This document shows, piece after piece, positions 18,921 through 37,350 of a DNA stretch of 53,454 nucleotides. The first letter of the stretch is position 1. Each line of letters opens with the position of its first letter. The notes under the pieces are model-generated. The model saw only the letters and a program-made list of their open reading frames with translations, did no database searches and was not told the DNA's origin. The translations under genes were made by a program, and so were the position numbers. This DNA is from a virus. Taxonomy: Duplodnaviria; Caudoviricetes. Location: positions 1 to 53,454 of the IMG/VR virus record IMGVR_UViG_3300033552_000011; one strand, given 5' to 3'.

Positions 18921-19658
18921 TTACGAACGGTACCAACCTTCAGCTTTCTTTTTCAGATCAGCTTCATTGAAGATTTCAGGGATCAGGTAACCGCCCTTTG
19001 CAGCAGTCAGTTTTTCAAGCGTGCGAATTCCAACAGGGTTGTCTACCGCCTCGTTGTAGAATCCAGACACCTGCTTGAAGATTTTTTGAATCGCATCATT
19101 GTCCAGCTCACCGTCGTTGTTTGAAACCTCGCGGAAGAAATCAAACTTGCCCTTGAAATACTCCTTGTTCACTTCTGATTCAGCGTAAACTTTCTTGATA
19201 AAGTCCTCGTCAACGTGGCGATCAATTGCTGCGCCGCGTGCTTTGGCTCGCTCAATTGCAACGTCTAGGTTGACATTGATAAACACCATGCCCACATCGT
19301 AGCCAACTGATTCCAAGAGACCGGCACGAGCCAGAATGTTCGACGCATCGTTTGAGGTACCGTCTACAAACAGCGGCAACATCGAGTTCAAATAGTTGAA
19401 CAGCGAAGTGCTCGTGATAGGCCGGGTGCGATCACGGAAGAACGACTTCCATGTTTCATTGTTAGAAGGCATCTTGTATTTCTTCGACAAGAACTCTGTT
19501 GCGATGTCGGTGTTTACAACCTTTGGTGAAATCGTGCCATGCAGCTTAGAAACTGTGTAGGACTTACCTGCACCAGGAATCCCTACAACGAAGAGTGCCT
19601 TGAGGATACCCTTGTCGTTAATTGATTCGTTCATCATGAATTCTTTGAATGTGATCAT
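18921..19658 (-). CDS. zeta-toxin/AAA_33-like P-loop kinase with capsid-targeting-like N-terminus
   Basis: MITFKEFMMNE; VGIPGAGKS, VNTD, FVDGT, GYDVGMVFI, ERAKAR. Confidence 0.75.
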   Translation of the reverse strand: MITFKEFMMNESINDKGILKALFVVGIPGAGKSYTVSKLHGTISPKVVNTDIATEFLSKKYKMPSNNETWKSFFRDRTRPITSTSLFNYLNSMLPLFVDGTSNDASNILARAGLLESVGYDVGMVFINVNLDVAIERAKARGAAIDRHVDEDFIKKVYAESEVNKEYFKGKFDFFREVSNNDGELDNDAIQKIFKQVSGFYNEAVDNPVGIRTLEKLTAAKGGYLIPEIFNEADLKKKAEGWYRS

Positions 19659-20536
19659 TACTTTGCTTTCAACTTTTTAACTTCGGCCTTGAACTCGTCA
19701 TAGTAACGAGCTGGCACAGAAAGGTATTTACCGGAGAACCAGCACTCACGTGTCTCTCCAGGCAAATCTAAATCTTTGGATGTGATCAGCTTCGCACGCC
19801 AATCTTCTGGCGTAAGCTTCTCAGGAATTTCTGTAGCTGCGATCTGTACCAACTGCGACAGCCAGGAATCGTCGTTAGCTTCCTCAGCGAACTTGTCAGC
19901 CACCTCGTCATTGCCATTGGCTTCTGAATTGAATCGACCCCTGCCATTACTGAATACCTTCTTGATCAGCTTCAGCTTGTCAAGAATGCCCATGTGGTCA
20001 GGGAACTCTTTGTAAAGCTCAGTGCCAACAAAGATTCGGAATGCATCGTCGATCAATCCAAAAATGCCATCGATTCGAACACCATCAAAGTTGTCTGTTA
20101 CTGTGCTACGCTTGAGCACGTTCATTTGATTTAGGTCGTAGTCATCCAGCATCGCAATCTTTACCCCGTCGAACGGGAAGATCATGAGAAGGTTTGATTT
20201 GTCATCGCTCACGGTGCCGACTGCGGATTCAGCATTAGTTGAGCAGAAAATCGATTGCCGACGAGCCGGCCAACCTTTCCAGGCCGGCTGAGAGAAAACG
20301 AATTCTTGTTCTTCAGCGCTGCCACCTCGGGACGTGGATTCGCGAGTGCGGGGTACACGGGTGCGGAGTGGATGATGTTTTTCATCCCAGGCACTGCCAC
20401 TTAGCCGGCACAACGGGTTATTGATATCAGGGAATTGCGAGCAATGGTTCAGAAATTCCTTGGCAGCGGCTTCTACTGAATCGTGCTGTTGGTCTTCTTC
20501 CTCAGCTTCGTTGAGGAACTGTTTGAATGTAATCAC
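19658..20536 (-). CDS. CTS-tagged ART-like paralog (group A)
   Basis: MITFKQFLNE; LCRL, RRQSIFCSTN, IFPFDG, RECWFSG. Confidence 0.6.
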   Translation of the reverse strand: MITFKQFLNEAEEEDQQHDSVEAAAKEFLNHCSQFPDINNPLCRLSGSAWDEKHHPLRTRVPRTRESTSRGGSAEEQEFVFSQPAWKGWPARRQSIFCSTNAESAVGTVSDDKSNLLMIFPFDGVKIAMLDDYDLNQMNVLKRSTVTDNFDGVRIDGIFGLIDDAFRIFVGTELYKEFPDHMGILDKLKLIKKVFSNGRGRFNSEANGNDEVADKFAEEANDDSWLSQLVQIAATEIPEKLTPEDWRAKLITSKDLDLPGETRECWFSGKYLSVPARYYDEFKAEVKKLKAK

Positions 20537-21276
20537 AAGGTGCCTTCCGTTTTTAGGCGAGTATAAAAGTTACGACGGATTGCGACACACTTGCCGCCGA
20601 TCCATAGTTCACGCTTTGTGTCAGAATAGTTGTCGATGGTTTTTGTTGTGGCTAACTCAAGCTTCAATCCTTCAGGACTGTAAGCCTTTTCCAGAGCTGC
20701 TTCAACGTTGTCCGGTGTACCGAATATTTGGATCAAACTCTCAACAATGCTTCCGCCCGAATCATCTGACATTTTCTCTTTGATAGCGTCGACGAACTCA
20801 AGGTAAGAAGACTGTGGCAAATCAAAGCTGCGCCAGATTCCGTTCCAATTGTGAATGCGATGGTCATCTTCTGAATCACCGATTTGAAAACTTGGTGTTG
20901 ACCAAAGATCATAAGCTGCGCAGACACCGATCTTTACACCGTCGTAAGGAAACACCGCATATACAGCACCGAATGCATCAGCGGTGTCTAGGTCATTTGC
21001 CAGGATGATTGACTTGCTCCGCTTCGGATATCCGAGTGACGGAAGGAAATTATCCATGATGTTGGTGTAAAAATTCGATGTGTTGGCAGACTCACGTGTT
21101 GATGCTTCACCATTCAAAAGGAAAGAATCTGAACCTGGGTTCATACCACGCCATAATGGTTCCTTCAGCTTGAGCGCGTCCCCGCAATGCTCTTTGATTA
21201 GAGCAACAGCTTCGGCAACTTCAAGTGCTGTTTTATGCGCACCCGCTTCATTCAGCAGGTATTGTTTAAATCTCAC
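20533..21276 (-). CDS. CTS-tagged ART-like paralog (group A)
   Basis: MRFKQYLLNE; LWRG, KRSKSIILAND..A..FG, VFPYDG, RELWIGG. Confidence 0.6.
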   Translation of the reverse strand: MRFKQYLLNEAGAHKTALEVAEAVALIKEHCGDALKLKEPLWRGMNPGSDSFLLNGEASTRESANTSNFYTNIMDNFLPSLGYPKRSKSIILANDLDTADAFGAVYAVFPYDGVKIGVCAAYDLWSTPSFQIGDSEDDHRIHNWNGIWRSFDLPQSSYLEFVDAIKEKMSDDSGGSIVESLIQIFGTPDNVEAALEKAYSPEGLKLELATTKTIDNYSDTKRELWIGGKCVAIRRNFYTRLKTEGTL

Positions 21277-21743
21277 TTGATTTCCTTTACTTCGGCATCA
21301 ATCGAAATCATACGCATGATCTCTTCTCGCGATGCAACCACGACGTTGTTCTGATTACGTCCTCCGCTGAATGGAACGAAAGCTGCTTGGCGCTTACGGT
21401 CGCCCTTGACCTTGGCACGGGTTGCAACTGCGTTCAGCGCTATGGTTAGATAGGATGCAGCAACCTCAGCATTACGAGCTGCGTAACGAGGCTCGATGAT
21501 CTGTGTGTACTCGGTCTGCTGTTGGAAGGTTTCGAGTGCAGCGTCATAGATGGCGTCGATGCGCTCATCAATAACTTTGTCATCCTCGTCCTGCTCTTCA
21601 CCCTCAGGTGGTGCAACCATCTCGGCCAGTTCACCTTCGGTTACCTGATCGTACTCTTCCAATTCCTGGCCATCCTCTTCGCGCTCGGTATTGAACAGCT
21701 CGTCAAGCGGGTTCAGAATTGGGTTTTCAGATTTCTGTTTCAT
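21273..21743 (-). CDS. probable terminase small subunit (gp16-like)
   Basis: Helical 156 aa; EPRYAARNAEVA..L..A and C-terminal NNVVVASREEIMRMI resemble the gp16 pattern. Confidence 0.55.
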   Translation of the reverse strand: MKQKSENPILNPLDELFNTEREEDGQELEEYDQVTEGELAEMVAPPEGEEQDEDDKVIDERIDAIYDAALETFQQQTEYTQIIEPRYAARNAEVAASYLTIALNAVATRAKVKGDRKRQAAFVPFSGGRNQNNVVVASREEIMRMISIDAEVKEIK

Positions 21744-22450
21744 TTTCGTACTCCCTTTGCGTTCCGCATTACAGAGCGGTACAGCATCATGTCAACAGCA
21801 ATACATTTGCCGCCGATCCATAGTTCGTGTTCTTTGCCATCATTGTAAATCCCAGATGTGGCGGTAGTAGCAAGCTTAAACTGCTCTGCGTAAGCCTTTG
21901 CTATCGTTTCCTTGATCGTCTTAGGATCGAGGTCTAAGATGTCACGCCTACCTAACAATGCCTTGAAGTCGCTTATTAACTTTGGAAATGACTTGTCGGT
22001 AATATCGTTATCGTTGTAGAAGTTGTTCCAGCGGTTAATGGTTCTTGCCATCGACCTCGGATGATTACTCAGCGAGATTTCAGTCTCAAAAATATCTCGA
22101 CCAGGACAAACACCAATCGTTACTCCGTCATATGGAACGATCGCATATGGTTCACCGTACCCGGCAGCATACTTTCTATTCTTCCAGTTCGCGGCGATGA
22201 TTGATGCGCTTCGCTTCGGGAACTCCTTAGGCAATACCGCATCCAGGATGACCGTGTAATGGTTAGATGTATTTGCTGACTGCCGTTTGCCAGCTGCACC
22301 GTGAATCAAGCCATAGCCATTTTCAAATGGATTCATGCCACGAACGATTGGCAGTTGGCCGATCGCATCTTTACAATGCTTATTCAGTAGCTTCCAGACT
22401 TCCTCTTCAGCGAGATCGGTCTTGTACTGTTTGATTTCGCTGAGTATCAT
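21740..22450 (-). CDS. ART-like paralog (group A), short MILSE leader
   Basis: IVRG, SANTSNHYT, KRSASII, IVPYDG, EHELWIGG; start revised to the ATGA overlap. Confidence 0.6.
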   Translation of the reverse strand: MILSEIKQYKTDLAEEEVWKLLNKHCKDAIGQLPIVRGMNPFENGYGLIHGAAGKRQSANTSNHYTVILDAVLPKEFPKRSASIIAANWKNRKYAAGYGEPYAIVPYDGVTIGVCPGRDIFETEISLSNHPRSMARTINRWNNFYNDNDITDKSFPKLISDFKALLGRRDILDLDPKTIKETIAKAYAEQFKLATTATSGIYNDGKEHELWIGGKCIAVDMMLYRSVMRNAKGVRK

Positions 22451-23208
22451 TCTGGAGAGTACCATCGAGATTGACCCAACATATTAGGATCAGGGTTCTC
22501 CATCATGTCTTTATAGACATTCATATTTATGACCACGCACTTGCCACCAATCCAAACCTCGCGACGCTTCTTGTCGTTGTAGACTTTGGATTCATCAGTG
22601 GTAGCCAGCTTAAACGGTTTCGTATAAGCTTTAATGAACTCCTGCTTAATGGTGCCTGGGTCAAGATCCGCAAGCCAATCAGAAATTCCGCTTTCTTTTG
22701 CCCGAAGTTTTTCAAGACGTTCCATCATTTCTTCAAAACTTAGTTTGTCATTGGCGACCGAATTACGCAGGTTGTAATTCCAATCCTCAATACTTTCATT
22801 GTATCCATTAACCTCAATTCGTGTGTCCCACATATCCGAGTCCGGGCAGACACCGATCTTCACCCCATCAAACGGAATGATCGCGAACAGCCTCCCACCA
22901 TATGCAGCTGCATGACTACGGTTCGCCCAGTTGGCACAGATGATTGACCCACTGCGCTTTGGAAACTCTTTCGGCAGAACAGCATCGAGAATGACGGTGT
23001 AATAATTAGTTGTGTTGCGTGACTTACGCCCGCCAACCTCACCATGTAAAACTCCGAAGCCGCCATCGAACCCCTTCATACCACGGACGATTGGTGTTTC
23101 CAAATCCTTCAGTGCGTCTTTGCAATGCTTGTTGAGAAGTTCCCAGGCACCTTGGGCGTCTGTCTCAGTTTTATACTGGTCTTCTGCCAGATAGTCTTTG
23201 AATCTCAT
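22447..23208 (-). CDS. CTS-tagged ART-like paralog (group A)
   Basis: MRFKDYLAE; IVRG, KRSGSIIC, IIPFDG, REVWIGG. Confidence 0.6.
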   Translation of the reverse strand: MRFKDYLAEDQYKTETDAQGAWELLNKHCKDALKDLETPIVRGMKGFDGGFGVLHGEVGGRKSRNTTNYYTVILDAVLPKEFPKRSGSIICANWANRSHAAAYGGRLFAIIPFDGVKIGVCPDSDMWDTRIEVNGYNESIEDWNYNLRNSVANDKLSFEEMMERLEKLRAKESGISDWLADLDPGTIKQEFIKAYTKPFKLATTDESKVYNDKKRREVWIGGKCVVINMNVYKDMMENPDPNMLGQSRWYSPE

Positions 23209-23690
23209 GTTGCAACTTTCTTGCCGGCCTTTGCCGCAGATGTTTTATAGATTGTTTTTTCAGTCACCACGCGGAACGTAGCACCTTGGGATTCAGCAAA
23301 GATCGCAGCAGCTTTCCATTTTGCCTGGTTCACTGCGTACATCATCTTGTCCCGCTCGGACATGCCAGGTGTAAGCACTGACTCACGATACGGTTTGACC
23401 TCGATGATTTCTTTCTTGATGGCACCGTTCGCATCACGGTACAGCATGATAAAGTCTGGATAGTAGCGGGATACTTTCGGCCGGCCATTCGGATCGAGCT
23501 TGATTGGGTTTACGTACGGGATCGCCAGCTCTTCAGAACCCCAGCGGAGCACTGCATTGTTCTGATCGAGCCATTTCATAAATGTCACTTCCCAACTGGA
23601 CCTGAACATAATGTTGTGCACGTTGCCCACATACTTCTGTGGATTCTTCGGCATGAACCTACCATGCATTGATCGTTTTGTACCTGCCAT
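23205..23690 (-). CDS. head completion protein (T4 gp4-like, TnsA-type nuclease fold)
   Basis: F.PKNPQKY.G...I.FRSSWE..FM.WLD....WGSEE..IPY, RYYPDF, IEVKP, VNQAKW. Confidence 0.92.
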   Translation of the reverse strand: MAGTKRSMHGRFMPKNPQKYVGNVHNIMFRSSWEVTFMKWLDQNNAVLRWGSEELAIPYVNPIKLDPNGRPKVSRYYPDFIMLYRDANGAIKKEIIEVKPYRESVLTPGMSERDKMMYAVNQAKWKAAAIFAESQGATFRVVTEKTIYKTSAAKAGKKVAT

Positions 23691-23702
23691 GGGTCTAATC
23701 CG

Positions 23703-25043
23703 TTATTTGATTGTTGTGCCAGCTGAAAGCGGGTTGTTCGGATCAGACGTGACGACCGCTTCAACAGAAGGTCTACCGGCAACATCTGAGTCCAGCACTG
23801 TTGTAACACCTGCAGGCGAAATGCTTGGTGCTTTAATCACGTTCATGTTTGTGAACGCTGCACCGGCCTGATTAACAAATCCTACGCCACCGCTTATGAA
23901 TCCTGCACCTAGATTACGCGAAGCAGCACCAACCAAGCCGCCAAGAATATTGGATGCTTGGCTACCAATGAGAGAAGCGAAACGACCGTTGCCAGCTATT
24001 GATTGCACCGTCCTGTTGATTGCAGATGATGTAATCTTCTGGGTAGCTCGGCCAAGTTGATTTGTGATGATGTTCGCGAATGGGTTGCCACCACCTTGCG
24101 GGTTGACACCGCGACCGGTTGGTGAAAAATCTACCGGAGCACCGTTGATACCTGGTGTGGTGATGTTATAGAACGGGCCGTCTGGGCCCTGCAACGGGCC
24201 GACCTGAACAATTTCCATCCAGTCATAGTCGAACTGCATGGTAACCAGGTTGGCGTCAGAACCTTCGTGTGAGAGGTCATCCAAGTCAAATGAGACCAGA
24301 CGCGCATTCAGAAAGTCAAAGATTGTTTCCTCAACTGCGGCGCCAAGTTGTGAACCCGGGTTCACATACATTTGCTTGACACGAATTGTTTGGATGACGT
24401 TACCAACTTCAGACGTGAGTGTGCCGCGGATTGCTGTGTCATTCGATTTGGCATCGTTGATCGCCGAGAAGTTCATACCGTTACCTTCTTGGATGGACAA
24501 CGGATCCGGAATACCAGTAGAACCTTCGCGACGCAGCTGACGGCGTGTGATCGGCGAATGAATCATCATGATCGCGCGGAAGAAGTTCATCACCCGGTTA
24601 CCAGTATCATCCATGAATGTCAACGTCAGTTCGCGGTGGCGAATCTTCTTGAGTACCTTCGTTCGGAAGTTGTACATGTTGATGTCGTCTTCATACTCGA
24701 AGTCGATTTTCGGGCGGTCGACCGACTTGACCATGAAGGTGAAGTCTTGCGACGCCAAGTTCGGATAAGCTGCCTTTGCTTCGGCAGTAAAGACAAACTC
24801 GACCTTGAAGAGGAACTTGAGCTTCGGGCGATAGCTTGTACCACCGGCCAGTGCCGCAGCATAGGATGAAGAATAGAATGATCCGTCGTTCCTATTGGAA
24901 GACGAGCTTGGTGGATTTGGGACACCCAACAATGGGCCCAACGTTCCGCGCGAGAATTCTTCTACAGCAGCACCAAACTTATCTGAAGCTTGACGCTCGA
25001 GTGCAATTTTGGTACTCTTTAGAATTGGGCTAATATCTGACAT
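23703..25043 (-). CDS. baseplate/tail-tube initiator protein (gp48/gp54-like, tube fold)
   Basis: F.V.F, VKSVDRPKI, NMYN, LTLTFMDD, LSHE...VTMQFDYD resemble the tube fold; adjacent to the tube gene. Confidence 0.6.
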   Translation of the reverse strand: MSDISPILKSTKIALERQASDKFGAAVEEFSRGTLGPLLGVPNPPSSSSNRNDGSFYSSSYAAALAGGTSYRPKLKFLFKVEFVFTAEAKAAYPNLASQDFTFMVKSVDRPKIDFEYEDDINMYNFRTKVLKKIRHRELTLTFMDDTGNRVMNFFRAIMMIHSPITRRQLRREGSTGIPDPLSIQEGNGMNFSAINDAKSNDTAIRGTLTSEVGNVIQTIRVKQMYVNPGSQLGAAVEETIFDFLNARLVSFDLDDLSHEGSDANLVTMQFDYDWMEIVQVGPLQGPDGPFYNITTPGINGAPVDFSPTGRGVNPQGGGNPFANIITNQLGRATQKITSSAINRTVQSIAGNGRFASLIGSQASNILGGLVGAASRNLGAGFISGGVGFVNQAGAAFTNMNVIKAPSISPAGVTTVLDSDVAGRPSVEAVVTSDPNNPLSAGTTIK

Positions 25044-25070
25044 GTTTTGCATCCACAATAGTGATTCCTC

Positions 25071-25078
25071 TATTTATG
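25071..25078 (-). promoter_or_regulatory. late promoter
   Basis: CATAAATA. Confidence 0.7.
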
Positions 25079-25098
25079 GGTATCGGCCAACAAACTTG

Positions 25099-25127
25099 TG
25101 TGCATAGTCGCGAAATGCAGGTATAAT
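25099..25127 (+). promoter_or_regulatory. early promoter (+ strand)
   Basis: TGTGCA-N17-TATAAT, then CAGGAG SD. Confidence 0.8.
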
Positions 25128-25152
25128 TCTTCTATCAACTCAGGAGACACAA

Positions 25153-25458
25153 ATGGCAAATGTTGCAGACACTATCTTGGAACAACTCGGCGGTAACAAG
25201 TTTCGTGCCATGACTGGTGCAAAGAACTTCTTGTCCTACGGTCCTGAGAATGCATTGTCGTTCCGTCTGCCAGCGAATTTATCCAAGGACAAAATCAACT
25301 ATGTGAAGATTACGTTGGGCAGCAACGATCTCTATACCGTGGACTTCAAATATATCCGTGGGGTGAAGGTCACGGATATCAGTAAGCATTATGCTGTTTG
25401 CTGCGACGAGCTGCAAGAACTGTTCACCGAAGCAACTAGTCTTGCTACCCATCTGTAA
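25153..25458 (+). CDS. hypothetical phage protein
   Basis: 101 aa (TILEQLGGNKF.AMTGAK...DLY..F); own promoter and SD. Confidence 0.8.
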   Translation: MANVADTILEQLGGNKFRAMTGAKNFLSYGPENALSFRLPANLSKDKINYVKITLGSNDLYTVDFKYIRGVKVTDISKHYAVCCDELQELFTEATSLATHL

Positions 25459-25466
25459 GGATAATC

Positions 25467-25721
25467 ATGAGCATCTTCGCCCGCGCCTTGAAGTTAGAAA
25501 TGGTAAAAGCTGACCGCGAATCCCAGAAGCAACACCGGGAAGAAAAAGAAGAACAAGCTGTCATGAAGGAACAGTTTCACGCCGAACAGATCGATGTTGG
25601 CTTTCGTGAAGAAGTGATTGCCGAACTGGTCGCAAGTGGATTTGCTCCACACGTGGCTGCGAACCTGACCGACACACCTGCCAAGTTGATGGCGAAAGCC
25701 CGCGAGATCGAGTACATCTAA
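25467..25721 (+). CDS. hypothetical protein
   Basis: 84 aa, AAGGA SD. Confidence 0.7.
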   Translation: MSIFARALKLEMVKADRESQKQHREEKEEQAVMKEQFHAEQIDVGFREEVIAELVASGFAPHVAANLTDTPAKLMAKAREIEYI

Positions 25722-25745
25722 TAAAAATGGCCCCGAAGGGCCATT
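25722..25745 (-). terminator. UUCG-tetraloop intrinsic terminator between convergent genes
   Basis: minus strand AATGGCCC-TTCG-GGGCCATT-TTTA. Confidence 0.85.
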
Positions 25746-25764
25746 GAACTTTAAGCGTGGTAGC

Positions 25765-26361
25765 TTACGTAGTGACGTTGCCGCCGAGAGCCGTGCCGTA
25801 ACCTTGGCCAGATTCTGTTTTGCGAGCATGGTCGTAACGAATTGACAGAGTGACTGTTGCTGCTTCGGACGCTGAGTAATCGCGATCACCGAAGTCGGCG
25901 TTGACGATGTAGCAACCTTCGAGAATCCATGAGGATGTAACACCTTCGTCACCGTCAAGTTGATCGATGCGAATGCCGAATTTGTAGTCAGAACCAGTAG
26001 CAGCAGTGTTCAACCAACGGCCGTCGAGATCGGAGCCGATGATACGCTGTTGAGTTTCCATCTGTGCTTCGATGACGCGAGTGGCGAGTCCACCGAGGTC
26101 GTCTTCAAACGTAACAGAGATTGGTTCCCAGCTGTGTTTACCAGCGATATACGCTGTCGAGTTGTAGCGGTGCAGGGTTACTTCTTCCCATGTAATGTTC
26201 GGCATCGTGACAGTAGTCACTTGCATAGTCAGGTTACGAGAATTGGCACCAGGAATCAGTTGACCGATGTTCTGGAAGATGATACGGAATTTGTTCTTGA
26301 GACGTGGGTGCAGAATACCTGCGCCTGCACCGGGAATTCCGAAATTTGAAAGTGTGGCCAA
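25765..26361 (-). CDS. tail tube protein (gp19-like), TTG start
   Basis: PRLKNKFRI, P..TWE....RYN....AGK..WEPI.VTF.DD, QLDG, GCY, TL.IRYD; GGAG SD; next to sheath. Confidence 0.88.
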   Translation of the reverse strand: MATLSNFGIPGAGAGILHPRLKNKFRIIFQNIGQLIPGANSRNLTMQVTTVTMPNITWEEVTLHRYNSTAYIAGKHSWEPISVTFEDDLGGLATRVIEAQMETQQRIIGSDLDGRWLNTAATGSDYKFGIRIDQLDGDEGVTSSWILEGCYIVNADFGDRDYSASEAATVTLSIRYDHARKTESGQGYGTALGGNVTT

Positions 26362-26399
26362 GGTTTTCTCCTTTTGTATTGGATGAGCTTTTCAGAAAC

Positions 26400-26407
26400 T
26401 ATTTATG
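26400..26407 (-). promoter_or_regulatory. late promoter
   Basis: CATAAATA upstream of the tube gene. Confidence 0.7.
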
Positions 26408-26446
26408 GATTAGCATCAAAAAATGGGCTAAACTTTTGAGGGGCCT

Positions 26447-26471
26447 AATAAAAAGGACCCGAAGGTCCTTT
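26447..26471 (-). terminator. UUCG-tetraloop intrinsic terminator
   Basis: minus strand AAAGGACC-TTCG-GGTCCTTT-TTATT. Confidence 0.85.
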
Positions 26472-26473
26472 GT

Positions 26474-26692
26474 TTAATCTAGCTTGTCGAGCTTACCAAG
26501 ATCAACGTCTTTGCCGTCGATCTTGATTGGTGTTCCTAACGTCTTGAGAACAAACTTGACTGCGTCTTTCTTTGACTTTGCGTGGACCTTCCTGGTGTTG
26601 GAGTCCTTGCCACGGTTGGTGGTGTAGGTGACTTTGTATTCATTGTCACCGTCCGCCGCTTTTCCGTAGTCCGCAATCTCAAAGAGCTTCAT
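26474..26692 (-). CDS. small basic protein with MKLFE leader (possible internal protein)
   Basis: 72 aa, K-rich, translationally coupled to the sheath gene. Confidence 0.65.
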   Translation of the reverse strand: MKLFEIADYGKAADGDNEYKVTYTTNRGKDSNTRKVHAKSKKDAVKFVLKTLGTPIKIDGKDVDLGKLDKLD

Positions 26693-28613: not shown

Positions 28614-28643
28614 AATATGCCCAGTTTCCCGGCAACAATGACA

Positions 28644-29828
28644 TCACTTTAGGTTGAAAGCTTTCATGAAAGCTTTCAAGGCGTTCTGTTCGGTTTCGTT
28701 GTCAAACATAGTTTTTGCTTTTTCAAAAGCATCAGGCACATGTTTATGAATTTTGTTCAGCATTGTCTTGAACTCAGCAATCATTTTTGTAGATATGTTG
28801 GGTTGCTTTTGGTAGATCAATTTACCCATCCAGTACATGGCAGTGTACAATGCCTGTTTGGCGTCTGTCCCATCCTCAACAGCATGTTCCAATCTACCCC
28901 AGACTGCGCCGCCCGCCTGAGAACTGATAAACGTTTGCAAGGTATCTCGTGGGTTGGCACCAACATCATCTTGCTTTTTGGTCTGGCTTGCACCAAACAA
29001 CTTCGCAAGCTTCTTCAGGTATTCTTGCTTCTCAGCTTCCGGATCACATGCCAGTTCCAGGATTGTGAGGAAGCGACCAACGTCGTCGGTAACCTGGTTC
29101 AATTTCTTGTGGTAGTCAGTGTTGCCTGCAGTACGGAATTCCAGGTAGCCAGCATCCAGTTTCATTAGGTTGACGGTACGGTACTTCATTTTCTTGAGAG
29201 CTGATCCGGCCATTGCCTTAAGCATCGATGCACTCTCTGGCTTGCTGGCATATTCTGACAGAGCTGCCATCAGGTCAGCACGGTGTTCCTGGGCATATGT
29301 GTTCAGCTTGCGATCGTAGGACTTTAGCACGTGTGCTTCGCCCATGAACAGGATCAGCTTGAGCGGATCGAGCTTTTCTTTGATGTCAGGGATCGACAGG
29401 TTCAAGTGCAGACCTGTTGTCGAGTTGGTAACCACTTCGTGCTTGACCATCCATTTGAACAACATCTTCAGGTCGCCCAGCGAGTCTTCGACTGGGTCTG
29501 GTGGGGAGATGATTTCAATTCCGCAGCCCAGTCCACCCTCTTGAATCGAACCGTCGGGAACGATTCGCCATTGGTTGATGCTCTCGCCGTTGACTCGCAC
29601 GGAATAGCCCAGCAAATCTTCGAGGGAATCTTTGGCCATCTTTGCTGTGGCCATGAAGTCGCCCTTGCTTGAATCCTGTGTGCTGACAATGAGCAGGTCC
29701 GATTCCTCTGGAACCCACATCTCTAGTTCGAAGCCCATCTTCGCAGAACCAGACATGCGTTCGATTGCTGCGGCGAATACGCCCTTGGACATGCGTGCTT
29801 CGTCCAGAAATTGTTTGAATGTAATCAT
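28644..29828 (-). CDS. putative amidoligase (COOH-NH2 ligase type) with CTS-like N-terminus
   Basis: MITFKQFLDE; GFELE, W.IVPDGSI, GIEIISP, TNSTTGLHLN, KYRTVNL, LEFR. Confidence 0.82.
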   Translation of the reverse strand: MITFKQFLDEARMSKGVFAAAIERMSGSAKMGFELEMWVPEESDLLIVSTQDSSKGDFMATAKMAKDSLEDLLGYSVRVNGESINQWRIVPDGSIQEGGLGCGIEIISPPDPVEDSLGDLKMLFKWMVKHEVVTNSTTGLHLNLSIPDIKEKLDPLKLILFMGEAHVLKSYDRKLNTYAQEHRADLMAALSEYASKPESASMLKAMAGSALKKMKYRTVNLMKLDAGYLEFRTAGNTDYHKKLNQVTDDVGRFLTILELACDPEAEKQEYLKKLAKLFGASQTKKQDDVGANPRDTLQTFISSQAGGAVWGRLEHAVEDGTDAKQALYTAMYWMGKLIYQKQPNISTKMIAEFKTMLNKIHKHVPDAFEKAKTMFDNETEQNALKAFMKAFNLK

Positions 29829-30535
29829 AGGTCTACAAAAGCTTTCTTTATGACGCCGAGTTGCAGGTCACGGTTTTCTTTATCGTTGGCCAGCGGAATG
29901 ACGTAGTACTCGTCGCAATCAATCATGATCTCAACTGCCATACCTACAGCCTTGTCGAATCCGTTGATGGTGTAACCGAGACCCTTCATCAGTTCACCGA
30001 TTGCCTCAACATCTGGCTTACCGTCTGAACCAACGAACTCTTTTTGAAGTTCACCAGGTGTACCGTGATCTTTCGTATTTGTCTGCAATTCTTTTCGAAT
30101 CACATCATCATACAGGTCGGCAACTTTTGGTGACCAGACATAGGTGAACTTACCGATTGGCAATATGACTGCGACCTGCCCATACTCATATGCGTTTTCA
30201 CGGCCAGCCTCACCAAAGCAAAACACCGCCTGTGAGCGGGCACGGATGCCCATCTCTTCTTCAAACCAATCATCAATGATTCCATGGATTGCTTTCGCGG
30301 TATCCATTGGCTTGCGTTCTTTGCGAACAGTCTTCTTGAACACATTGAAAGTAACGCCTGGGAATTTCTCACCAAGCGACATGTTGCCAACCAGCGAACC
30401 AGCGCCGTTCATGCCCCGGACTATCAGGCCATTCTGTTGGGATCGTTTGAAGAAGTCAGAACAGTCGCCACGAAGCAATCCCTCGAAGGTCAAGTTTTCT
30501 TTTTCCTCTAGGAACTGCTTAAACGTTTTAGTCAT
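29825..30535 (-). CDS. CTS-tagged ART-like paralog (group B)
   Basis: MTKTFKQFLEE; IVRG, RKPMDT, ARSQAVFCFG, LPIG.F.YVWS, VEIMIDC..YY. Confidence 0.58.
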   Translation of the reverse strand: MTKTFKQFLEEKENLTFEGLLRGDCSDFFKRSQQNGLIVRGMNGAGSLVGNMSLGEKFPGVTFNVFKKTVRKERKPMDTAKAIHGIIDDWFEEEMGIRARSQAVFCFGEAGRENAYEYGQVAVILPIGKFTYVWSPKVADLYDDVIRKELQTNTKDHGTPGELQKEFVGSDGKPDVEAIGELMKGLGYTINGFDKAVGMAVEIMIDCDEYYVIPLANDKENRDLQLGVIKKAFVDL

Positions 30536-31031
30536 CTGATTTTACTTTGTACATTTCACGACGCAAGTCGCGCGGTGAAGTACCCTTGATTTTCATGGTG
30601 CGCTTCGGCATATCAAAGATATACTCTGGGATCGAACCAACAAAGTGCTTGTCAGTACGCTTGATGGCGTAGGTCTCTGCGCGCGATGCACCATTTTCCA
30701 GGTGACGCATATCAACCAACTCCACGTCTGAAAACATCTGGCGAACCTTCTGAACATTGTCAATCGTGAATTCAATCATTTCAGAATTGCGTTTTTGTTT
30801 CGCCTTATCGAAATCAGTCCACACTTTCAGCTTGATTTTCATTGGCTTACCGTCATACAGTTTGTCAAGCTTGGCTTGCTTCTCTGCCTTCAAACGATCA
30901 CCGGCTGCGTTCAGTACTTTGTCGTTCTCAGCTTTCTTTTCAGCACGCTTCGCATCTTTCTCTGCGCGCGTTACCTGCTTGCCGCCTTTGTTCTCGGCAA
31001 TGTACAGGTCGATTAATTGAATCAGTTTCAT
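30528..31031 (-). CDS. basic hypothetical protein, leader ending YIAE
   Basis: MKLIQLIDLYIAE, K-rich. Confidence 0.65.
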   Translation of the reverse strand: MKLIQLIDLYIAENKGGKQVTRAEKDAKRAEKKAENDKVLNAAGDRLKAEKQAKLDKLYDGKPMKIKLKVWTDFDKAKQKRNSEMIEFTIDNVQKVRQMFSDVELVDMRHLENGASRAETYAIKRTDKHFVGSIPEYIFDMPKRTMKIKGTSPRDLRREMYKVKSDD

Positions 31032-31819
31032 AGGATCTCGTTTGGTTGTGGTGGAATAGGACCCTGTGCAGGGCGTTCAGTAATTTCAACGGTGCCGTAG
31101 GTCGGGTCACCGAAAGGCAGAAGGTTACCGTCATCAGTTACTTCAAGAGTACCCATTGACCCGAGGTCACCAAGTTGAATCACGACCTTGCGTACCAGGT
31201 CATCCTTGATGCCCATTGGAATGCTGAGGTAGATTGGCATGATGAAGCCGAGTGACCAGACGATCATGCGGCGATCTGCACCTGATGGATAGTTTTCTTC
31301 GTTGTTGATGTCGGTCAGGGTAATGTTGGTGATGCGCGTCCAGTCAAACGGTCCATCAGACTTTTGGATCTGAATGTCTGGGTTGAAGAGAACGAGGATC
31401 TGTTCGAGGATCTGGTGAAGCTGTTGGGTGTTTGATGCCCAGATAGCAAGTTCCATAGTCATGTCATATGGAACAGGCATGACGCGCTTGACAACCGTCA
31501 GGTCATCTGGGAAGACACCACCGGTTTTCATTGTAACGATTTGATCGACGAAGCCAATACCACGACGACGTTCATCGTTAGGTACAAGGCCAGTCATGTA
31601 TGCGGACATCGTCGGCAGGGAGAATACACGGTTCGATGTGTTGCCTGACATGATGCCGGCAACAACACGGTCTTTGTTACCAATGACTGTAGGTACACTG
31701 ATGAATTCGGGCTCGCCGCATTCACCGATGCCAGTCTGTACTTGCAGGCCGTGGAAGATCGAGACGAACTGGAGCAGGTATGCCCTGAGTTGTCCGTGGT
31801 AAAAAAAGTGGTTTATGAT
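31028..31819 (-). CDS. tail sheath stabilizer/terminator (gp15-like), non-canonical ATC start
   Basis: Frame open upstream of the track's ATG (IINHFFYHGQLRAYLLQFVSIF...VP); LPTMS, PVPYDM.MEL.IW, QILEQILVLFNP; GGAG 8 nt before ATC. Confidence 0.8.
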   Translation of the reverse strand: MINHFFYHGQLRAYLLQFVSIFHGLQVQTGIGECGEPEFISVPTVIGNKDRVVAGIMSGNTSNRVFSLPTMSAYMTGLVPNDERRRGIGFVDQIVTMKTGGVFPDDLTVVKRVMPVPYDMTMELAIWASNTQQLHQILEQILVLFNPDIQIQKSDGPFDWTRITNITLTDINNEENYPSGADRRMIVWSLGFIMPIYLSIPMGIKDDLVRKVVIQLGDLGSMGTLEVTDDGNLLPFGDPTYGTVEITERPAQGPIPPQPNEIL

Positions 31820-31836
31820 GGTAAAAGCTCCGTGTG

Positions 31837-32466
31837 TTATTTGAATCCTAGAGATTTTTTAAGCTCTTCCTCGTATTCAATCGGGAAAGCATAGTATTTA
31901 TCGCACTTGATCATGATCTCACATTCATTGCGAACGGCAGAATCCAGACCAGTCTTTCGGTATTCTTGTTTATTCAGCCACTCGATAATGTCGGCTGGCT
32001 CACCTTCGTCTAGCTCTTCACCTTGGAGGTCAACATACAAATCGCTGATGTTAACCGACCACACATATTGAAATTCACCAATCGGGAAAATAATATGAGG
32101 ATCGCCGTATTCTTCGATGATCTCTGAAGAAGAATTTTCACCAAAGGCAAAGAGGCCTTCGGTACGCGCTTTGAACCCAAACTTATCATCGAACCAAGCG
32201 TTAAGTGTGCGATGGGTTTCGCTCGACATATCGCGTGGTTCACGATCAGAACGTACAGTTTTCCTGATGTACACCAGCTTGTTGCCTTCAGAATCTGTTA
32301 CATGCAGATCACCGGAAAGATGACTGTGTTTAATACCACGGAACAGGAAACCATTGCGGTCGGAGTCCCTAATGAACTGGCCGCAATCGCGTTCGATCAT
32401 CGTGCGAACTTCGTTGTCATACGACTTTGGATCGGCTTCGTTCAGGAATTGTTTGAATGTTTTCAC
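31837..32466 (-). CDS. CTS-tagged ART-like paralog (group B)
   Basis: MKTFKQFLNE; LFRG, ARTEGLF, IFPIGEF.YVWS, ECEIMIKC..YY. Confidence 0.6.
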   Translation of the reverse strand: MKTFKQFLNEADPKSYDNEVRTMIERDCGQFIRDSDRNGFLFRGIKHSHLSGDLHVTDSEGNKLVYIRKTVRSDREPRDMSSETHRTLNAWFDDKFGFKARTEGLFAFGENSSSEIIEEYGDPHIIFPIGEFQYVWSVNISDLYVDLQGEELDEGEPADIIEWLNKQEYRKTGLDSAVRNECEIMIKCDKYYAFPIEYEEELKKSLGFK

Positions 32467-33104
32467 GGGGTCATATCCAGTGCTAGTTTGATGGCATGCT
32501 CGCCGGCAAGTTCAAATGCGTAGTAACGATCGCATTGGACCATAACTTCATTTTTCATGTTCACGGCTTTGTGTAGGTGAGAGTCGATGTACTTGGCGGA
32601 GTTTAGAAACTCAATGAGCTTTTCTTCATCTCCATCTTTTAACTTGTTAATATCTTGGCCAATCTCGTTGTAAAGATCCTTGACAATCGGGGACCAAACG
32701 TAATTGAATTCACCAATTGGAAAGACTGCGCATGGTACACCGTACTGACGCAGGAGATTTTTGCCGGTCTCACCCAGGCAGAACATTGTCTGCGAGCGAG
32801 CACCGAAGCCGAATTTCTTTTTGAACCAGTTGTCCATGATCTGGTGTTGCTGCCGTTGGCTGTCTTTCGGCTTGCGATCTTGCCGAACAGTCTTCTCCCA
32901 GTAAATGAGGTCGTGTTCACGAGGTGAATCTACGCCGGCTCTAATTGACAGAGCTGTATCAATAGGAATTCCGCCTTCGGAAACACCTCGATACAGGAGA
33001 CCATGTTGTTTCGACTCTTGCAGGAAAGGTTTGCAGTCGCGCTCGACCAGTTCCCTGAACGTGATGGCTTCTTCTTCGGTGATAAATTGTTTGAATGTAA
33101 TCAT
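32463..33104 (-). CDS. CTS-tagged ART-like paralog (group B)
   Basis: MITFKQFITE; LYRG, ARSQTMFC, VFPIGEF.YVWS, NEVMVQC..YY. Confidence 0.6.
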   Translation of the reverse strand: MITFKQFITEEEAITFRELVERDCKPFLQESKQHGLLYRGVSEGGIPIDTALSIRAGVDSPREHDLIYWEKTVRQDRKPKDSQRQQHQIMDNWFKKKFGFGARSQTMFCLGETGKNLLRQYGVPCAVFPIGEFNYVWSPIVKDLYNEIGQDINKLKDGDEEKLIEFLNSAKYIDSHLHKAVNMKNEVMVQCDRYYAFELAGEHAIKLALDMTP

Positions 33105-33724
33105 TATGTTTTGCCAGTCGTTAGTGACTCTCGTAGCAGCGTTGCGTATTCCATAGGGAACGCATAGTAGCTGCTACATTGGACCATGATCTCATTACGA
33201 CCACGACATGCGTGCTGCAAATCCGTTGTTTGGTAACCAGCGCCTCCCAACCATTTGGTAATCTTTTCTTCCTCGTATTCATCCATGACGTTATACATGT
33301 CCTCAACATGTTCTGACCAAACGTATTTGATATCACCAATTGGGAAGATAATGCAGGGTGTTCCATAATGAGAAAGTTCATTACGATGAAGTCCAGCACC
33401 GGCTGCGAACACACAATTTGTGCGGGCACGGATGCCGAACTTTTCATTGAACCAATCATCAACAATGGTAGTGCGCTTCCTGGACATGTCCTTCGGTTTA
33501 CGATCGGTGCGAACAGCCTTCTTGATGAAGTCCATGTTGGTACCATCGTAAGCCTCGGTCGATCCAGGAATACCAGTATCAATCTTGACACCACGATACA
33601 GGAATCCACCCTTGGCTTCTTTTAAGAACGGGCCGCAATGCTTCTCGAGAAGAATCTTCACCTCTGCAGGTGGTTCTTCTCCAAGAAATTTGTCCTCACC
33701 TAGATATTGCTTAAATGTTATCAT
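33104..33724 (-). CDS. CTS-tagged ART-like paralog (group B)
   Basis: start revised to MITFKQYLGE (ATGA overlap); LYRG, ARTNCVF, IFPIG, NEIMVQC..YY. Confidence 0.6.
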   Translation of the reverse strand: MITFKQYLGEDKFLGEEPPAEVKILLEKHCGPFLKEAKGGFLYRGVKIDTGIPGSTEAYDGTNMDFIKKAVRTDRKPKDMSRKRTTIVDDWFNEKFGIRARTNCVFAAGAGLHRNELSHYGTPCIIFPIGDIKYVWSEHVEDMYNVMDEYEEEKITKWLGGAGYQTTDLQHACRGRNEIMVQCSSYYAFPMEYATLLRESLTTGKT

Positions 33725-35655
33725 GGAACCTTCTTGCTGGATGGATTCATTGTCGTATCCATATTCAGAATTTGAAGCTGACTTGGACGGTGCGCAGAAC
33801 GCTGGGCACGGCGATCGGTCTCGACATAAATCCAATCGTTCTTGACGATTGAGAATTTGTACAGGCGAGCTGGCAGGTTGAGCTGAGGCGCGTACTCGAG
33901 GCGGTAGTATTCTCCGTCTTTAGCTTTTGCAGCATCAGGTAACTTGTCGAAGCCAGTCGTGTATGGTGCTCCATCTGGCGGCAAGCCATCCTCGACATAC
34001 AGGCCAACACCGTCGTACGAACCTGGTTGGCGGAAGCGATTGGTACCAGAGGCTTGTTCGCGAACGTTCGTTCCCTTTTCTGGAACAGCGCGAACTGCTT
34101 CGGCTTCGTTTGCCTCGGATGCTGTGAGTCCCATCGTTTCGATTTGTTCAACACCTTCAAAGAATCGGAAGTCGTCAGTGATGTATTTCTGTGTGTCGGC
34201 AGTGCCGAGCAAATCGCGGTGCTCTTGACCTGGAATAAGTTGTTGAGCCTGGAAACGGTAGATGATCGGCTTCCAACCAGAGGTGAAACCATCTGCTGCC
34301 CAACCGCCGTCAGTTACTTCCAGGAACTTACGCACTGGACGGAGGTGTTGATCCCACTGCATTTCAGATGGGACTTCAAGGATGTCTCCAATTACGATTG
34401 GCCGACCAAGTGCTCGCACCATGTCAGCGAAGGATACAGTGAACGAATAGATGTCAGCCATCTGGAAACCGAACTTTGACAGGTCAGACACAGCGTCAAA
34501 TGGGGTGTACTGTGCTTTGAGCTGGATAGATGATTTCGCGTAGTCGCGATCACGGTTCTCCATGAAGAGCGGGTCTTGGATATCGTCAAGCGTTGTTGCC
34601 TGGTAATCGAATAGCTCGAGCTTGTCTACAACCCATGGCGAACCATTGCTGGCACCAGCGAATGATGTAGGTACAATCCTCCAGTAACGGGATGCAGCTG
34701 ACTGCTTGATACGAATCAACGCACCTATTGCTGCATTCGGCAGGTTGACAACGTCAACACGCTTCCATTCCATCTCGACAGGAACCATGAACGAATCGCC
34801 AGATTGGAACGGCACAGCACCTGGGTTGATTGTGAACGAGCCTTCTGGCGAATTGAATTGAGCGCCGACAGTTGCTTCACCAAGGATCGATGTGCCTTCG
34901 TTCGACGTGTACATGACCGTAAACTTCATCGGCGAATCAGCAAACAGCATGAATGATCCTGGCCGGGAACCAAAGCCTGGGCGGAATCCACCCACGGCGC
35001 CGTCGCCGCCCTGAGCATTGGACGTTGTGATCTTGAACTGGTTGACTGTAAAGTTTCCGTCGGAGCGGTCAACACGAACCTGCATCGCACGAGTAGTCGC
35101 ATCCGGTCCTTGCTGGATACGGAAACTTGTGATGTGTTGGGAGTCAGGTGCACCAGGTGCGTTCTCAGGTTCGCCGAAAGAAGTCTTGCGAATACCAAAA
35201 TCATAACCAATATACGCGGGTCCTTGCAGAACGTCTAGGCCAGTGGTTGAGCTGACCCAACTGTCGGCCAGCTCGTCAAACACATTGGCAACATCTCCGC
35301 TCGACCCGATTGCGTGGCCAGCACCAACGAGGTCAATCAGCTTGCCCTGCTCGTGGTTACCCAGGAGCTTGAACACATTGACTGGCGCGCCAGAGATGTT
35401 CAGTGCTTCAGCAGCAACTGCATCCTGGTAAGTGTTCTCAGTGTATGCACAAACGTCTTGCGAAAGCCTGTACGTACCAACGCAGAATTCCGGAGGCACG
35501 TAGGTTCCACCGCCACCAGGCGGTATGACTGCGCCAGGGCCAAGTGGTGGGGCATAAGGCAGGCCCGAGTTAGGGGTCACCGGATTGTTGAAGGAGCCTG
35601 CAGCATCCAGGCATTCTTCAAGTGTAGTTCGTTTTGGTGGTAGTGGTGTAGTCAT
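33721..35655 (-). CDS. neck protein (gp14-like) with inserted discoidin-like and beta domains
   Basis: EALNISG..V.V, DPLFMENRDRDY, LSKFG, GRP.VIGDILE; lies between gp13 and gp15. Confidence 0.65.
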   Translation of the reverse strand: MTTPLPPKRTTLEECLDAAGSFNNPVTPNSGLPYAPPLGPGAVIPPGGGGTYVPPEFCVGTYRLSQDVCAYTENTYQDAVAAEALNISGAPVNVFKLLGNHEQGKLIDLVGAGHAIGSSGDVANVFDELADSWVSSTTGLDVLQGPAYIGYDFGIRKTSFGEPENAPGAPDSQHITSFRIQQGPDATTRAMQVRVDRSDGNFTVNQFKITTSNAQGGDGAVGGFRPGFGSRPGSFMLFADSPMKFTVMYTSNEGTSILGEATVGAQFNSPEGSFTINPGAVPFQSGDSFMVPVEMEWKRVDVVNLPNAAIGALIRIKQSAASRYWRIVPTSFAGASNGSPWVVDKLELFDYQATTLDDIQDPLFMENRDRDYAKSSIQLKAQYTPFDAVSDLSKFGFQMADIYSFTVSFADMVRALGRPIVIGDILEVPSEMQWDQHLRPVRKFLEVTDGGWAADGFTSGWKPIIYRFQAQQLIPGQEHRDLLGTADTQKYITDDFRFFEGVEQIETMGLTASEANEAEAVRAVPEKGTNVREQASGTNRFRQPGSYDGVGLYVEDGLPPDGAPYTTGFDKLPDAAKAKDGEYYRLEYAPQLNLPARLYKFSIVKNDWIYVETDRRAQRSAHRPSQLQILNMDTTMNPSSKKVP

Positions 35656-36492
35656 TTAATCATTCCAGTCAGGAGCATTCCAGTGTTCTTGCAGTTCTTC
35701 AAGTAGCTCTGGATATTGATCAGCCCATTCCATAATTCGTTTTGCGTCTGCTTCTTTCATGCGGCCGATAGTTGGAATGAATCCAACTTCACCCTCGATC
35801 CAGACTTCACCATCTGAGTCGTGGTTACCTACCTGTGCACCGGTCGTGTTACGAAGGAACAGGGACGGTGTCATCACAGCTTCCCATGCCTCGTATAGAT
35901 TGTCCAACTTGAGACGCTTCATGTACTTGTACAATGAGGCAATGGACGAGCTTTGGTCGCCCTCATCTTCTACGTGCCGTTGCACATCTTCCAAATCGAT
36001 ATTCTTTAAGGCAGATACCAATTCAGGATAGGTGTCATGCTTGTCGGTCATCAGCGATTCTGACACTTGGTTAAACTCTTCAATGGTCATATTCGAAATT
36101 TTGGTCTCGGCATCCCACAAGTCGCGGTCGCCTACAACCCCGATCTTGGCTTCATCGTGTACTATGAGGAGAGCAGCCGAACCAAAGCCTTGAGCGATGT
36201 CTCGGTCATCGGCAGCGATCCAAGCCTGTGAACGCTTCGGCCAGTCTTTGAACATGGGATGATTGTCAAACCACAATGTGTAGTTGTTGTACGTGTTGGC
36301 GCTTTTGCGAGGCAAGCCACCAAGCGATGACCCAAGACGCAGACCTTTCTCGCCATCGCCAGATCCGCCGCGATACAGGAACTTCGGTCCAGACATATAC
36401 ACTTTCGCGTTTGTGTCCGCCCACTTGATGAAGGCTTCTACGCCGACGACGGCAGTGCGTGATTCAGAAAGGAATTGTTTAAAAGTCTGCAT
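35656..36492 (-). CDS. CTS-tagged ART-like paralog (group A)
   Basis: MQTFKQFLSE; LYRG, RKSANTYNNYT, KRSQAWIA.D...A..FG, GEVWIEG. Confidence 0.6.
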   Translation of the reverse strand: MQTFKQFLSESRTAVVGVEAFIKWADTNAKVYMSGPKFLYRGGSGDGEKGLRLGSSLGGLPRKSANTYNNYTLWFDNHPMFKDWPKRSQAWIAADDRDIAQGFGSAALLIVHDEAKIGVVGDRDLWDAETKISNMTIEEFNQVSESLMTDKHDTYPELVSALKNIDLEDVQRHVEDEGDQSSSIASLYKYMKRLKLDNLYEAWEAVMTPSLFLRNTTGAQVGNHDSDGEVWIEGEVGFIPTIGRMKEADAKRIMEWADQYPELLEELQEHWNAPDWND

Positions 36493-37350
36493 TTAATCGT
36501 CCGCGCCTTTGCGGTTCCATTGTGCTGTGAGTTGTTTTGACAACTCCTCGTTTTTATCTTTCAACCATTCAGTCAAAAGCACTTTGTCTTCTTCGCTTAT
36601 TTGATTCCTGTCAAGTGAAATGAATCCGCATTCACCTTCGATCCAAACCTCAACGCTACCACTCGAATCGATGTTCGCACCGGTAGTCAGGCCGAAAATC
36701 TCTGGTTTGACGAGACCATTCCAAACATCCCACATGTCGTCCCAATTTCTCTTGTCCATCTCTTTGAGCAAGTGCTCAAGTTGGTCCTCATAGAACGTAG
36801 CGAGATTAACCTTGTCGTCATACCATTTACGCATCAGCCTCTTTGAAACGTGCTGCAAGGCATTCTGAAGTTCAAAATACTTTTCGCTGCGGCCCATATC
36901 GAACCTGTGCAAGAGCGTTTCGGTAAGCTCATTTAAACCTAAGAGATCTATATCTGGCAAAACCTTCTTGACCCAGATATCACCAACCAAAACGTCTGCG
37001 ACCTTATCGTTGTCCTTGATGAACATCAGGTGAGGGTAACCAAAGTCGCCAGCTTTCCCCGCACTGGTTGAAGCAATGAATGACGACGAACGCTTCGGGA
37101 AGCCTTTGAATCGCGGATGACCATCAATCCACAGAGTGTAGTTGTTGGGGATACCACCAACACTCTTACGAGGCTTTGTACCAACTGAATTTCCAATTGT
37201 GATACCAGCATCGCCACTCGTGAATCCGCGATAGACATGTTGATTGCCCGCAATATACTTCGAGCAATTTGAGTTTGCCCACTTGATAAAATCTTCGGCC
37301 GATACTGCTTTGCCTCGTCCCTCGGAGAGAAACTGCTTGAATGTCTTCAT
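36493..37350 (-). CDS. CTS-tagged ART-like paralog (group A), best STS motif
   Basis: MKTFKQFLSE; VYRG, KRSSSFIASTSAGKAGDFG, VEVWIEG. Confidence 0.65.
   Translation of the reverse strand: MKTFKQFLSEGRGKAVSAEDFIKWANSNCSKYIAGNQHVYRGFTSGDAGITIGNSVGTKPRKSVGGIPNNYTLWIDGHPRFKGFPKRSSSFIASTSAGKAGDFGYPHLMFIKDNDKVADVLVGDIWVKKVLPDIDLLGLNELTETLLHRFDMGRSEKYFELQNALQHVSKRLMRKWYDDKVNLATFYEDQLEHLLKEMDKRNWDDMWDVWNGLVKPEIFGLTTGANIDSSGSVEVWIEGECGFISLDRNQISEEDKVLLTEWLKDKNEELSKQLTAQWNRKGADD

Follow-up and report, generated by a model that had tools for sequence, protein, structure and literature searches.

What are the ten related open reading frames (ORFs) that stand among tail and neck genes in the virus contig IMGVR_UViG_3300033552_000011, and where would their products act? 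The contig is 53,454 bases long and estimated to be 18% complete, and all of it was analysed (hereafter the window). An original prediction, made from the letters of the sequence, took the ten ORFs for an injected battery of ADP-ribosyltransferases (ARTs) of the R-S-E clade, or of decoys binding nicotinamide adenine dinucleotide (NAD). Our analysis upholds the family and gives it a different character. Its members begin with a short leader resembling the capsid targeting sequence (CTS) of the phage T4 internal proteins, and we consider it probable that the ten products are head proteins, loaded into the prohead, trimmed by a protease and ejected.

One family of ten paralogs

All ten ORFs lie on the minus strand and were found where the original prediction had placed them; we number them m1 to m10 by position (Table 1). 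BLASTP and profile alignment relate them far beyond chance, so that the earlier view of a single paralog family holds. Two subfamilies can be distinguished, A (m1, m2, m3, m4, m9 and m10) and B (m5-m8). Within A, BLASTP connects m3 with m4 (5e-79, 50% identity over 232 residues), m9 with m10 (1e-50) and m1 with m2 (3e-10), and within B the four members match one another at 4e-30 to 1e-52 with 32-40% identity. Links between the subfamilies are weaker (m10-m6, 1e-6; m9-m7, 4e-4), and hhalign aligns the A and B profiles over 129 columns with a probability of 99.5% (E 3.9e-22). On these alignments, the two subfamilies are homologous.

When all six frames of the contig were searched with the profile, 11 matches were returned, which correspond to these ten ORFs only (m8 being found in two pieces). 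The alternative TTG start listed for m8, at 33835, would overlap the upstream gene for a 644-aa virion protein. Hidden Markov models of the PHROGs database match all ten members (E 4e-6 to 2.9e-32), six of them with phrog_12810 and four with phrog_11975, while m2 and m10 touch both; both are bare clusters without a function attached, and the model of phrog_12810 includes a fused P-loop kinase. Single paralogs have orthologues in other contigs that are closer to them (66-78% identity) than the window paralogs are to one another (25-50%), so that the copies are old and separately maintained.

A leader of the T4 type and its distribution

The N-terminal helix described in the original prediction turned out to start with something else, a separable leader of 9-11 residues with the consensus M-x-T-F-K-Q-F-L-x-E. 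We obtained AlphaFold2 models for m4 (predicted local distance difference test, pLDDT, 92.8; predicted template modelling score, pTM, 0.88) and m7 (pLDDT 87.2, pTM 0.84), and the leader forms the low-confidence end of both, with a pLDDT over the first ten residues of 72 in m4 and 44 in m7 as opposed to more than 90 for the body. The leader ends in (L/I)-x-E in nine of the ten members, and by inspection m2 ends in L-L-N-E.

Twelve ORFs of the window carry the leader, namely the ten members, an amidoligase-like ORF and an ORF resembling zeta-type kinases. When the window was searched with a degenerate DNA pattern for T-F-K-[QE]-[FY]-[LIM]-x-E, eight matches were found, each where a minus-strand ORF has its 5' end, against none for the reversed control. 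The leader codons vary synonymously among the 12 ORFs (TTC/TTT, AAA/AAG, CAA/CAG, CTN), so the peptide is under selection and was not recently copied.

The T4 internal proteins IPII and IPIII (NC_000866) start with MKTYQEFIAE, which has the same length as the window leader. Set in register, the two sequences share M1, T3, F7 and E10, with conservative exchanges at position 4 (Y/F) and position 8 (I/L). According to passages of PMC9026906, residues 4 and 7 of the T4 CTS serve targeting, and residues 8 and 10 serve processing. Aligning the family profiles with T4 IPIII by hhalign brings only the leader into register, over 11-13 columns; no likeness to IPIII was seen in the mature parts. The window family thus resembles IPI, IPII, IPIII and Alt of T4 in the pattern and length of a ten-residue leader, in the unrelated cargo behind it, in a T4-type morphogenesis setting and in the gp21-type protease of the window's relatives. 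It differs in that ten paralogs of one conserved domain occur here in a giant phage, whereas T4 has three small basic proteins, and in that loading and cleavage are presumed here.

The two unrelated bearers of the leader are themselves predicted enzymes. The amidoligase-like ORF lies between the tail sheath gene and m5, and BLASTP against the family mostly matches its 8-13 N-terminal residues (up to 31 residues at 42% identity, with m9); this predicted enzyme is probably head-loaded. The kinase-like ORF shares its first base with the last base of m1 and matches positions 260-454 of phrog_12810, of which the family domain covers positions 1-250. This pairing recurs: family member and kinase are adjacent in the window and in Ralstonia phage RsoM2USA (ORFs 255 and 254), and fused in gp053 of phage Atu_ph07 and in the phrog_12810 model. 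Adjacency and fusion suggest that the kinase may act jointly with the family. An internal contrast is provided by an ORF that is HD-like by its sequence, matches phrog_6931 and a PNK-like kinase, and lacks the leader (Table 1).

Profile searches detected the family in further giant-phage sequences, with 13 matches in Atu_ph07 (490 kb), five in RsoM2USA (344 kb) and 16 in phage contigs binned in the metagenome-assembled genome (MAG) G001; a scan of genome contigs with a single protein found one MAG contig. The leader of the window type is present on the RsoM2USA members 403, 404, 405 and 255 and on the kinase-like 254. It also occurs on ORF89 and ORF385 of that phage, which match no Pfam model and align to the family profile only through the 11-residue leader. 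ORF89 is among ten protein bands identified from purified virions (PMC8504454). A separate observation at 65163-67654 of RsoM2USA is that ORFs 88-90 are adjoining paralogs, leucine-rich-repeat-like by eye and without a Pfam match, which carry variants of the leader, the exact form being that of ORF89.

In one locus of Atu_ph07, 11 of the 19 translated ORFs are members (gp053-gp063); gp054 is a tandem pair, and the fusion gp053 is annotated as a zeta-toxin-domain protein. Ten of the 13 family matches in this phage have a leader of their own, M-(R/K)-W-x-Q-L-x-E, again ending in L-x-E. Its DNA pattern matches the genome ten times, nine times in the array and once at member gp408, and the control gave no match. 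Most of the leader-bearing members fall within coding sequences (CDS) 31-76, the cluster holding the array, and virion mass spectrometry identified 29 proteins within that cluster (PMC6102473). A protease of the T4 gp21 type (Peptidase_S77) was found in three of the four records searched, RsoM2USA (2.5e-30), Atu_ph07 (2.4e-22) and MAG G001 (4.2e-26).

The metagenomic protein P0068, of 2,645 aa, is a polyprotein-like chain of family units, four B-type and one A-type, that also contains a different repeat in five copies and matches GNAT weakly. By reading of its sequence, (L/V)-x-E-S precedes most of the family units, and these motifs look like protease sites. This architecture recalls the polyvalent injected proteins of Iyer and Aravind, which are mentioned in PMC7824862, although the window units are separate genes with a leader each and the passages of that jumbo-phage survey considered here do not describe the family.

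Taken together, we propose that the family is one old alpha/beta domain, each member of which would be made with an N-terminal propeptide of 9-11 residues and expressed late, together with the structural genes. As a counterpart of the T4 CTS, the propeptide would direct each protein to the scaffolding core of the prohead, where a gp21-type prohead protease (Peptidase_S77) would cut behind the Glu of (L/I)-x-E. Left with about 200-280 residues, the mature proteins would then remain in the filled head and exit with the DNA at infection, and the family may be coupled to the co-packaged zeta-like kinase. The idea of a diversified, virion-delivered battery in the original prediction gains independent support from a T4-type leader on every member, whereas its ART label had to be dropped, as described below.

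Several points weigh against this account. Loading, cleavage and ejection of the window proteins are predictions from sequence, and genes for capsid, scaffold and prohead protease, which we looked for, were not found in the 18%-complete window; neither was Peptidase_S77 found when this fragment was searched for it. The ten virion bands of RsoM2USA include no family member (ORFs 255 and 403-405 are absent; PMC8504454), and the 29 virion proteins of Atu_ph07 are a count for the whole cluster. The hhalign score of the leader against IPIII (E 0.047-0.049, probability 1.1%) is weak and not significant alone. The leader of m3 is degenerate and that of m4 is one residue short. Finally, the binding pocket discussed in the following section, of which we are less sure, has conservation as its sole basis.

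Conserved residues and the alternatives to head loading

The ordered motifs of the original prediction are genuine, and FIASTS in m10, IFCSTN in m1, EHE in m3 and ECE in m6 read as given there. Five residues are common to all ten members: a Glu near position 10, one Arg each in x-R-G, R-(K/E)-(S/P) and (K/A)-R-(S/T), and the Glu in E-x-(W/M). Literal S-T-S occurs in m10 only, and E-x-E in m3 and m6 only. Across 138 sequences of subfamily A, whose mean column identity is 19%, R42, R61, R85 and D125 are invariant, and E9, G43, S63, N68, Y70, T71, D75, P83, S86, S88, I90, G105, P112, G119, E217 and W219 are kept in at least 90%. The corresponding R39, R74, R103, D143 and E186 are retained in subfamily B (19 sequences), and the conserved Asp common to both subfamilies was seen by profile alignment. 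Each Ser of R-S-x-S reaches at least 90% in the 138 subfamily-A sequences and is not among the conserved positions of subfamily B. The stretch separating the F-P strand from the late Glu strand is highly variable in both length and sequence. The case for a ligand-binding or active site, most simply one holding phosphates, lies in the invariant R/R/R/D/E set together with the abundance of conserved polar residues. Tentatively, and leaning somewhat against rather than for it, we suggest that these five residues may line a pocket for a phosphorylated ligand (a nucleotide, an NAD-like molecule or nucleic acid) and that the hypervariable helical insert may set the target of each paralog.

This conservation bears on the best surviving alternative, that the proteins are packaged and non-enzymatic, being either bulk internal head proteins that organise or accompany very long DNA in the manner of an inner body, or stoichiometric inhibitors of defence like T4 IPI. 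Leader and gene context fit packaged non-enzymes equally well, and the copy number is high in all four records. T-even internal proteins, those of T4 included, are described in the relevant part of PMC3012670 as diverse defence inhibitors among which only the CTS is conserved. SPN3US and other phiKZ-like phages have multi-copy paralog sets of processed head proteins, according to the abstracts of PMC5694885 and PMC7411985. These head-internal families are likewise multi-copy, protease-trimmed and ejected. The phiKZ-like lineage differs from that of the window phage, as does its cleavage motif, and the two were compared by description only. We nevertheless hold the non-enzyme explanation to be unlikely. 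Five charged and several Ser, Asn, Tyr and Thr residues that stay invariant or nearly so at such low mean identity look more like a binding or catalytic site than like filler or inhibitors that bind by their surface, and the leader is shared with a predicted kinase and a predicted amidoligase.

Still less probable is an explanation in which the shared N terminus is no head-loading tag, being for example an element of translation initiation or folding, and the proteins stay in the cytoplasm of the infected cell, outside virions. Such a reading agrees with the RsoM2USA virion bands and with a window phage known solely as sequence. However, conservation resides in the peptide and not in the RNA sequence, the leader occurs on unrelated proteins, and it is in register with the T4 sequence, including the four positions important in T4. 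Moreover, one of its bearers, RsoM2USA ORF89, is a virion protein, and the leader of Atu_ph07 differs yet ends in L-x-E.

Least probable of all is that the family consists of R-S-E clade ARTs or NAD-binding decoys injected to modify host targets, an identity that is left unsupported by Foldseek, BFVD, Pfam and hhalign alike. The order of the motifs does favour it: x-R-G is followed by R-S-x-S before a strand and by a late Glu strand, with E-x-E in two of the ten members. The consensus of an alignment of T4 ModB, ModA and Alt looks alike (L-x-R-G ... V-V-S-x-S ... E-Q-E-V-M-I-P), and T4 Alt, by its record annotation, is a precedent for a packaged ART with a leader. The family therefore shares with R-S-E ARTs (T4 Alt, ModA and ModB; C3; VIP2) the succession of Arg strand, Ser-rich strand and late Glu strand, and with Alt the packaging in the head. 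It differs from them by two further invariant Arg and an Asp and by the restriction of E-x-E to two members, and searches by fold, Pfam and profile gave no ART among the matches listed. In the m4 model, S-x-S lies ahead of its strand, while in ARTs S-T-S lies at the end of strand 2.

Structural comparison with ARTs had been put forward in the original prediction as a check, and Foldseek, run on the m4 and m7 models, gave no significant match to a solved structure and no ART among the matches listed. Against 350,542 PDB chains, neither model had a match at E <= 0.001; at E <= 10 there were 74 for m4 and 117 for m7. The lowest E values were 0.94 and 0.67, with template modelling (TM) scores of at most 0.17 by query length and 0.21 by target, and the ART fold was absent from the 50 PDB matches listed per model. 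The search against BFVD yielded 29 matches at E <= 0.001, all with uncharacterised giant-phage proteins (Atu_ph07 and uncultured marine phages), and no named ART among the 50 matches listed. In a structure search of the ESM Atlas, viral hypothetical clusters reached TM scores of 0.72-0.82, and nothing named exceeded 0.34.

Sequence searches pointed the same way. For the ten members, Pfam returned nothing above its cut-offs and no ART family at E <= 1 in any of them. When the 138 relatives were searched singly, 40 Pfam families appeared at E <= 0.1, each in at most two members, and there was no ART among the 25 listed of these 40. NCBIfam gave nothing for the four members tested, and the profiles of both subfamilies found no match of note among PDB sequences. 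Against the alignment of ModB, ModA and Alt, a profile of these three sequences only, hhalign assigned the family profiles probabilities of 0.2% and 0.3%. The power of such tests is low: Pfam recognises Alt (PF03496, 5.8e-36) and misses ModA and ModB, which is one of three T4 ARTs, and as a control the T4 ART profile retrieved no ART among PDB sequences. Because of these weak controls, the case against ARTs rests mainly on the fold searches.

One named candidate was followed separately. DUF2441 (PF10386), which a passage of PMC7955679 lists within the Pfam ART clan, is the nearest named ESM Atlas cluster for m4 and m7 with scores of 0.83 and 0.84, and would speak for ARTs; such scores below 0.9 are leads only, shuffled proteins reaching 0.8 in a third of cases. 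Using three DUF2441 proteins, taken from three of 401 genomes searched, hhalign gave probabilities of 0.09% and 0.05%, and PF10386 had no match in the window at E <= 10. A likeness to DUF2441 perceived by eye in the motifs F-P-x-x-S-R and E-V-I-F-x-G was not upheld by hhalign.

Genomic setting and meaning of the family

The phage from which the window derives is a giant T4-like myophage. Its tail sheath is 53% identical to that of RsoM2USA, and the gene types seen include UvsX, gp32, large terminase, tail tube, sheath stabiliser, head closure and neck. The ten family ORFs stand in a single minus-strand block with neck, sheath, tube and head-closure genes, along which stops and starts overlap. 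Megablast of positions 19000-38000 against phage records gave no match.

Table 1. Members of the family, the two unrelated leader-bearing ORFs and other features of the window. Residues in brackets are at GTG starts.
Feature	Positions	Strand	Length (aa)	Leader	Remarks
HD-like ORF	3704-4861	-			
Large terminase (TerL)-like ORF	14911-16443	-			Matches TerL models
TerL-like ORF	16440-17225	-			Matches TerL models
Zeta-toxin/AAA_33-type P-loop kinase-like ORF	18921-19658	-	245	MITFKEFMMNE (variant)	Zeta_toxin 3.8e-8, AAA_33 8.1e-8
m1	19658-20536	-	292	(M)ITFKQFLNE	Subfamily A, divergent; GTG start; phrog_12810 4e-6
m2	20533-21276	-	247	(M)RFKQYLLNE	Subfamily A; GTG start
m3	21740-22465	-	241	MVLSRMILSE	Subfamily A; EHE before late strand
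m4	22447-23208	-	253	MRFKDYLAE	Subfamily A
Tail-tube-like ORF, longer	23703-25058	-	451		
Tail-tube-like ORF	25765-26361	-			
Tail sheath gene	26692-28578	-			
Amidoligase-like ORF	28644-29828	-	394	MITFKQFLDE	Pfam Amidoligase_2 1.5e-6, 28.7 bits (cut-off 22)
m5	29825-30535	-	236	MTKTFKQFLEE	Subfamily B
m6	31837-32466	-	209	(M)KTFKQFLNE	Subfamily B; GTG start; ECE before late strand
m7	32463-33104	-	213	MITFKQFITE	Subfamily B
m8	33104-33724	-	206	MITFKQYLGE	Subfamily B; ATG at 33724; phrog_11975 2.9e-28
m9	35656-36492	-	278	MQTFKQFLSE	Subfamily A; phrog_12810 1.2e-28
m10	36493-37356 (or 37350)	-	287	MKTFKQFLSE (10 residues, from start at 37350)	Subfamily A; phrog_12810 1.3e-21
Homing endonuclease-like ORF	37347-38087	-			phrog_314 1.6e-41

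Some other features of the window were recorded. The large terminase appears as two adjoining ORFs, which overlap in the matched part of phrog_5989 and could represent a split gene, a frameshift or a duplication. Two tail-tube-like ORFs match phrog_4542 (6e-14 and 4e-44, the longer ORF first), and the homing endonuclease-like ORF, which lies between the neck/adaptor gene and m10, overlaps the start of m10. The T4 late-promoter-like TATAAATA occurs three times in the window (2905-2912, 18911-18918 and 45094-45101, minus strand) against 0.48 expected, in each case 22-36 bases upstream of a minus-strand ORF start (2869, 18889 and 45066). As a marker of late expression it is uninformative for the family, none of the three matches in the window being directly before a member.

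The family extends far beyond the window. Profile search detected 8,466 cluster representatives (50% identity) at E <= 0.001, of which 4,966 at E <= 1e-10, and the ESM Atlas clusters of the family are 96-100% viral; it appears to be restricted to phages in the sources searched. Those sources gave no name for it other than 'hypothetical', no Pfam model and no match to a solved structure. In the open-access listings and passages covered, we met no description of the family, nor of giant phages like Atu_ph07 having a targeting leader of the T4 type. Tagged head cargo in the style of T4 is known; what is new is a very large family of such cargo.

If the preferred reading of head-loaded, ejected proteins is extended to function, the family could constitute a new enzyme or ligand-binding fold with an R/R/R/D/E site, delivered by the capsid in at least ten specificities per phage. 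Together with the co-packaged zeta-like kinase and amidoligase, it would target nucleotide-based or NAD-centred host defence or serve host takeover, within the first seconds of infection. We regard this full version as doubtful, more so than the pocket by itself.

The finding matters in several respects. Correcting the attractive but unsupported ART label keeps it from spreading into annotation, and the family is a good target for work on structure and function. Little is known of what enters the cell along with the DNA of giant phages. If the leader is a true head-loading tag, the proteins injected by an entire clade of giant T4-like phages could be listed by searching for a short motif; in the 53 kb analysed here there would be 12 of them, predicted enzymes included. 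Should the R/R/R/D/E-site reading hold as well, the T4-type leader would be a tag by which the injected proteome may be read directly from genomes.

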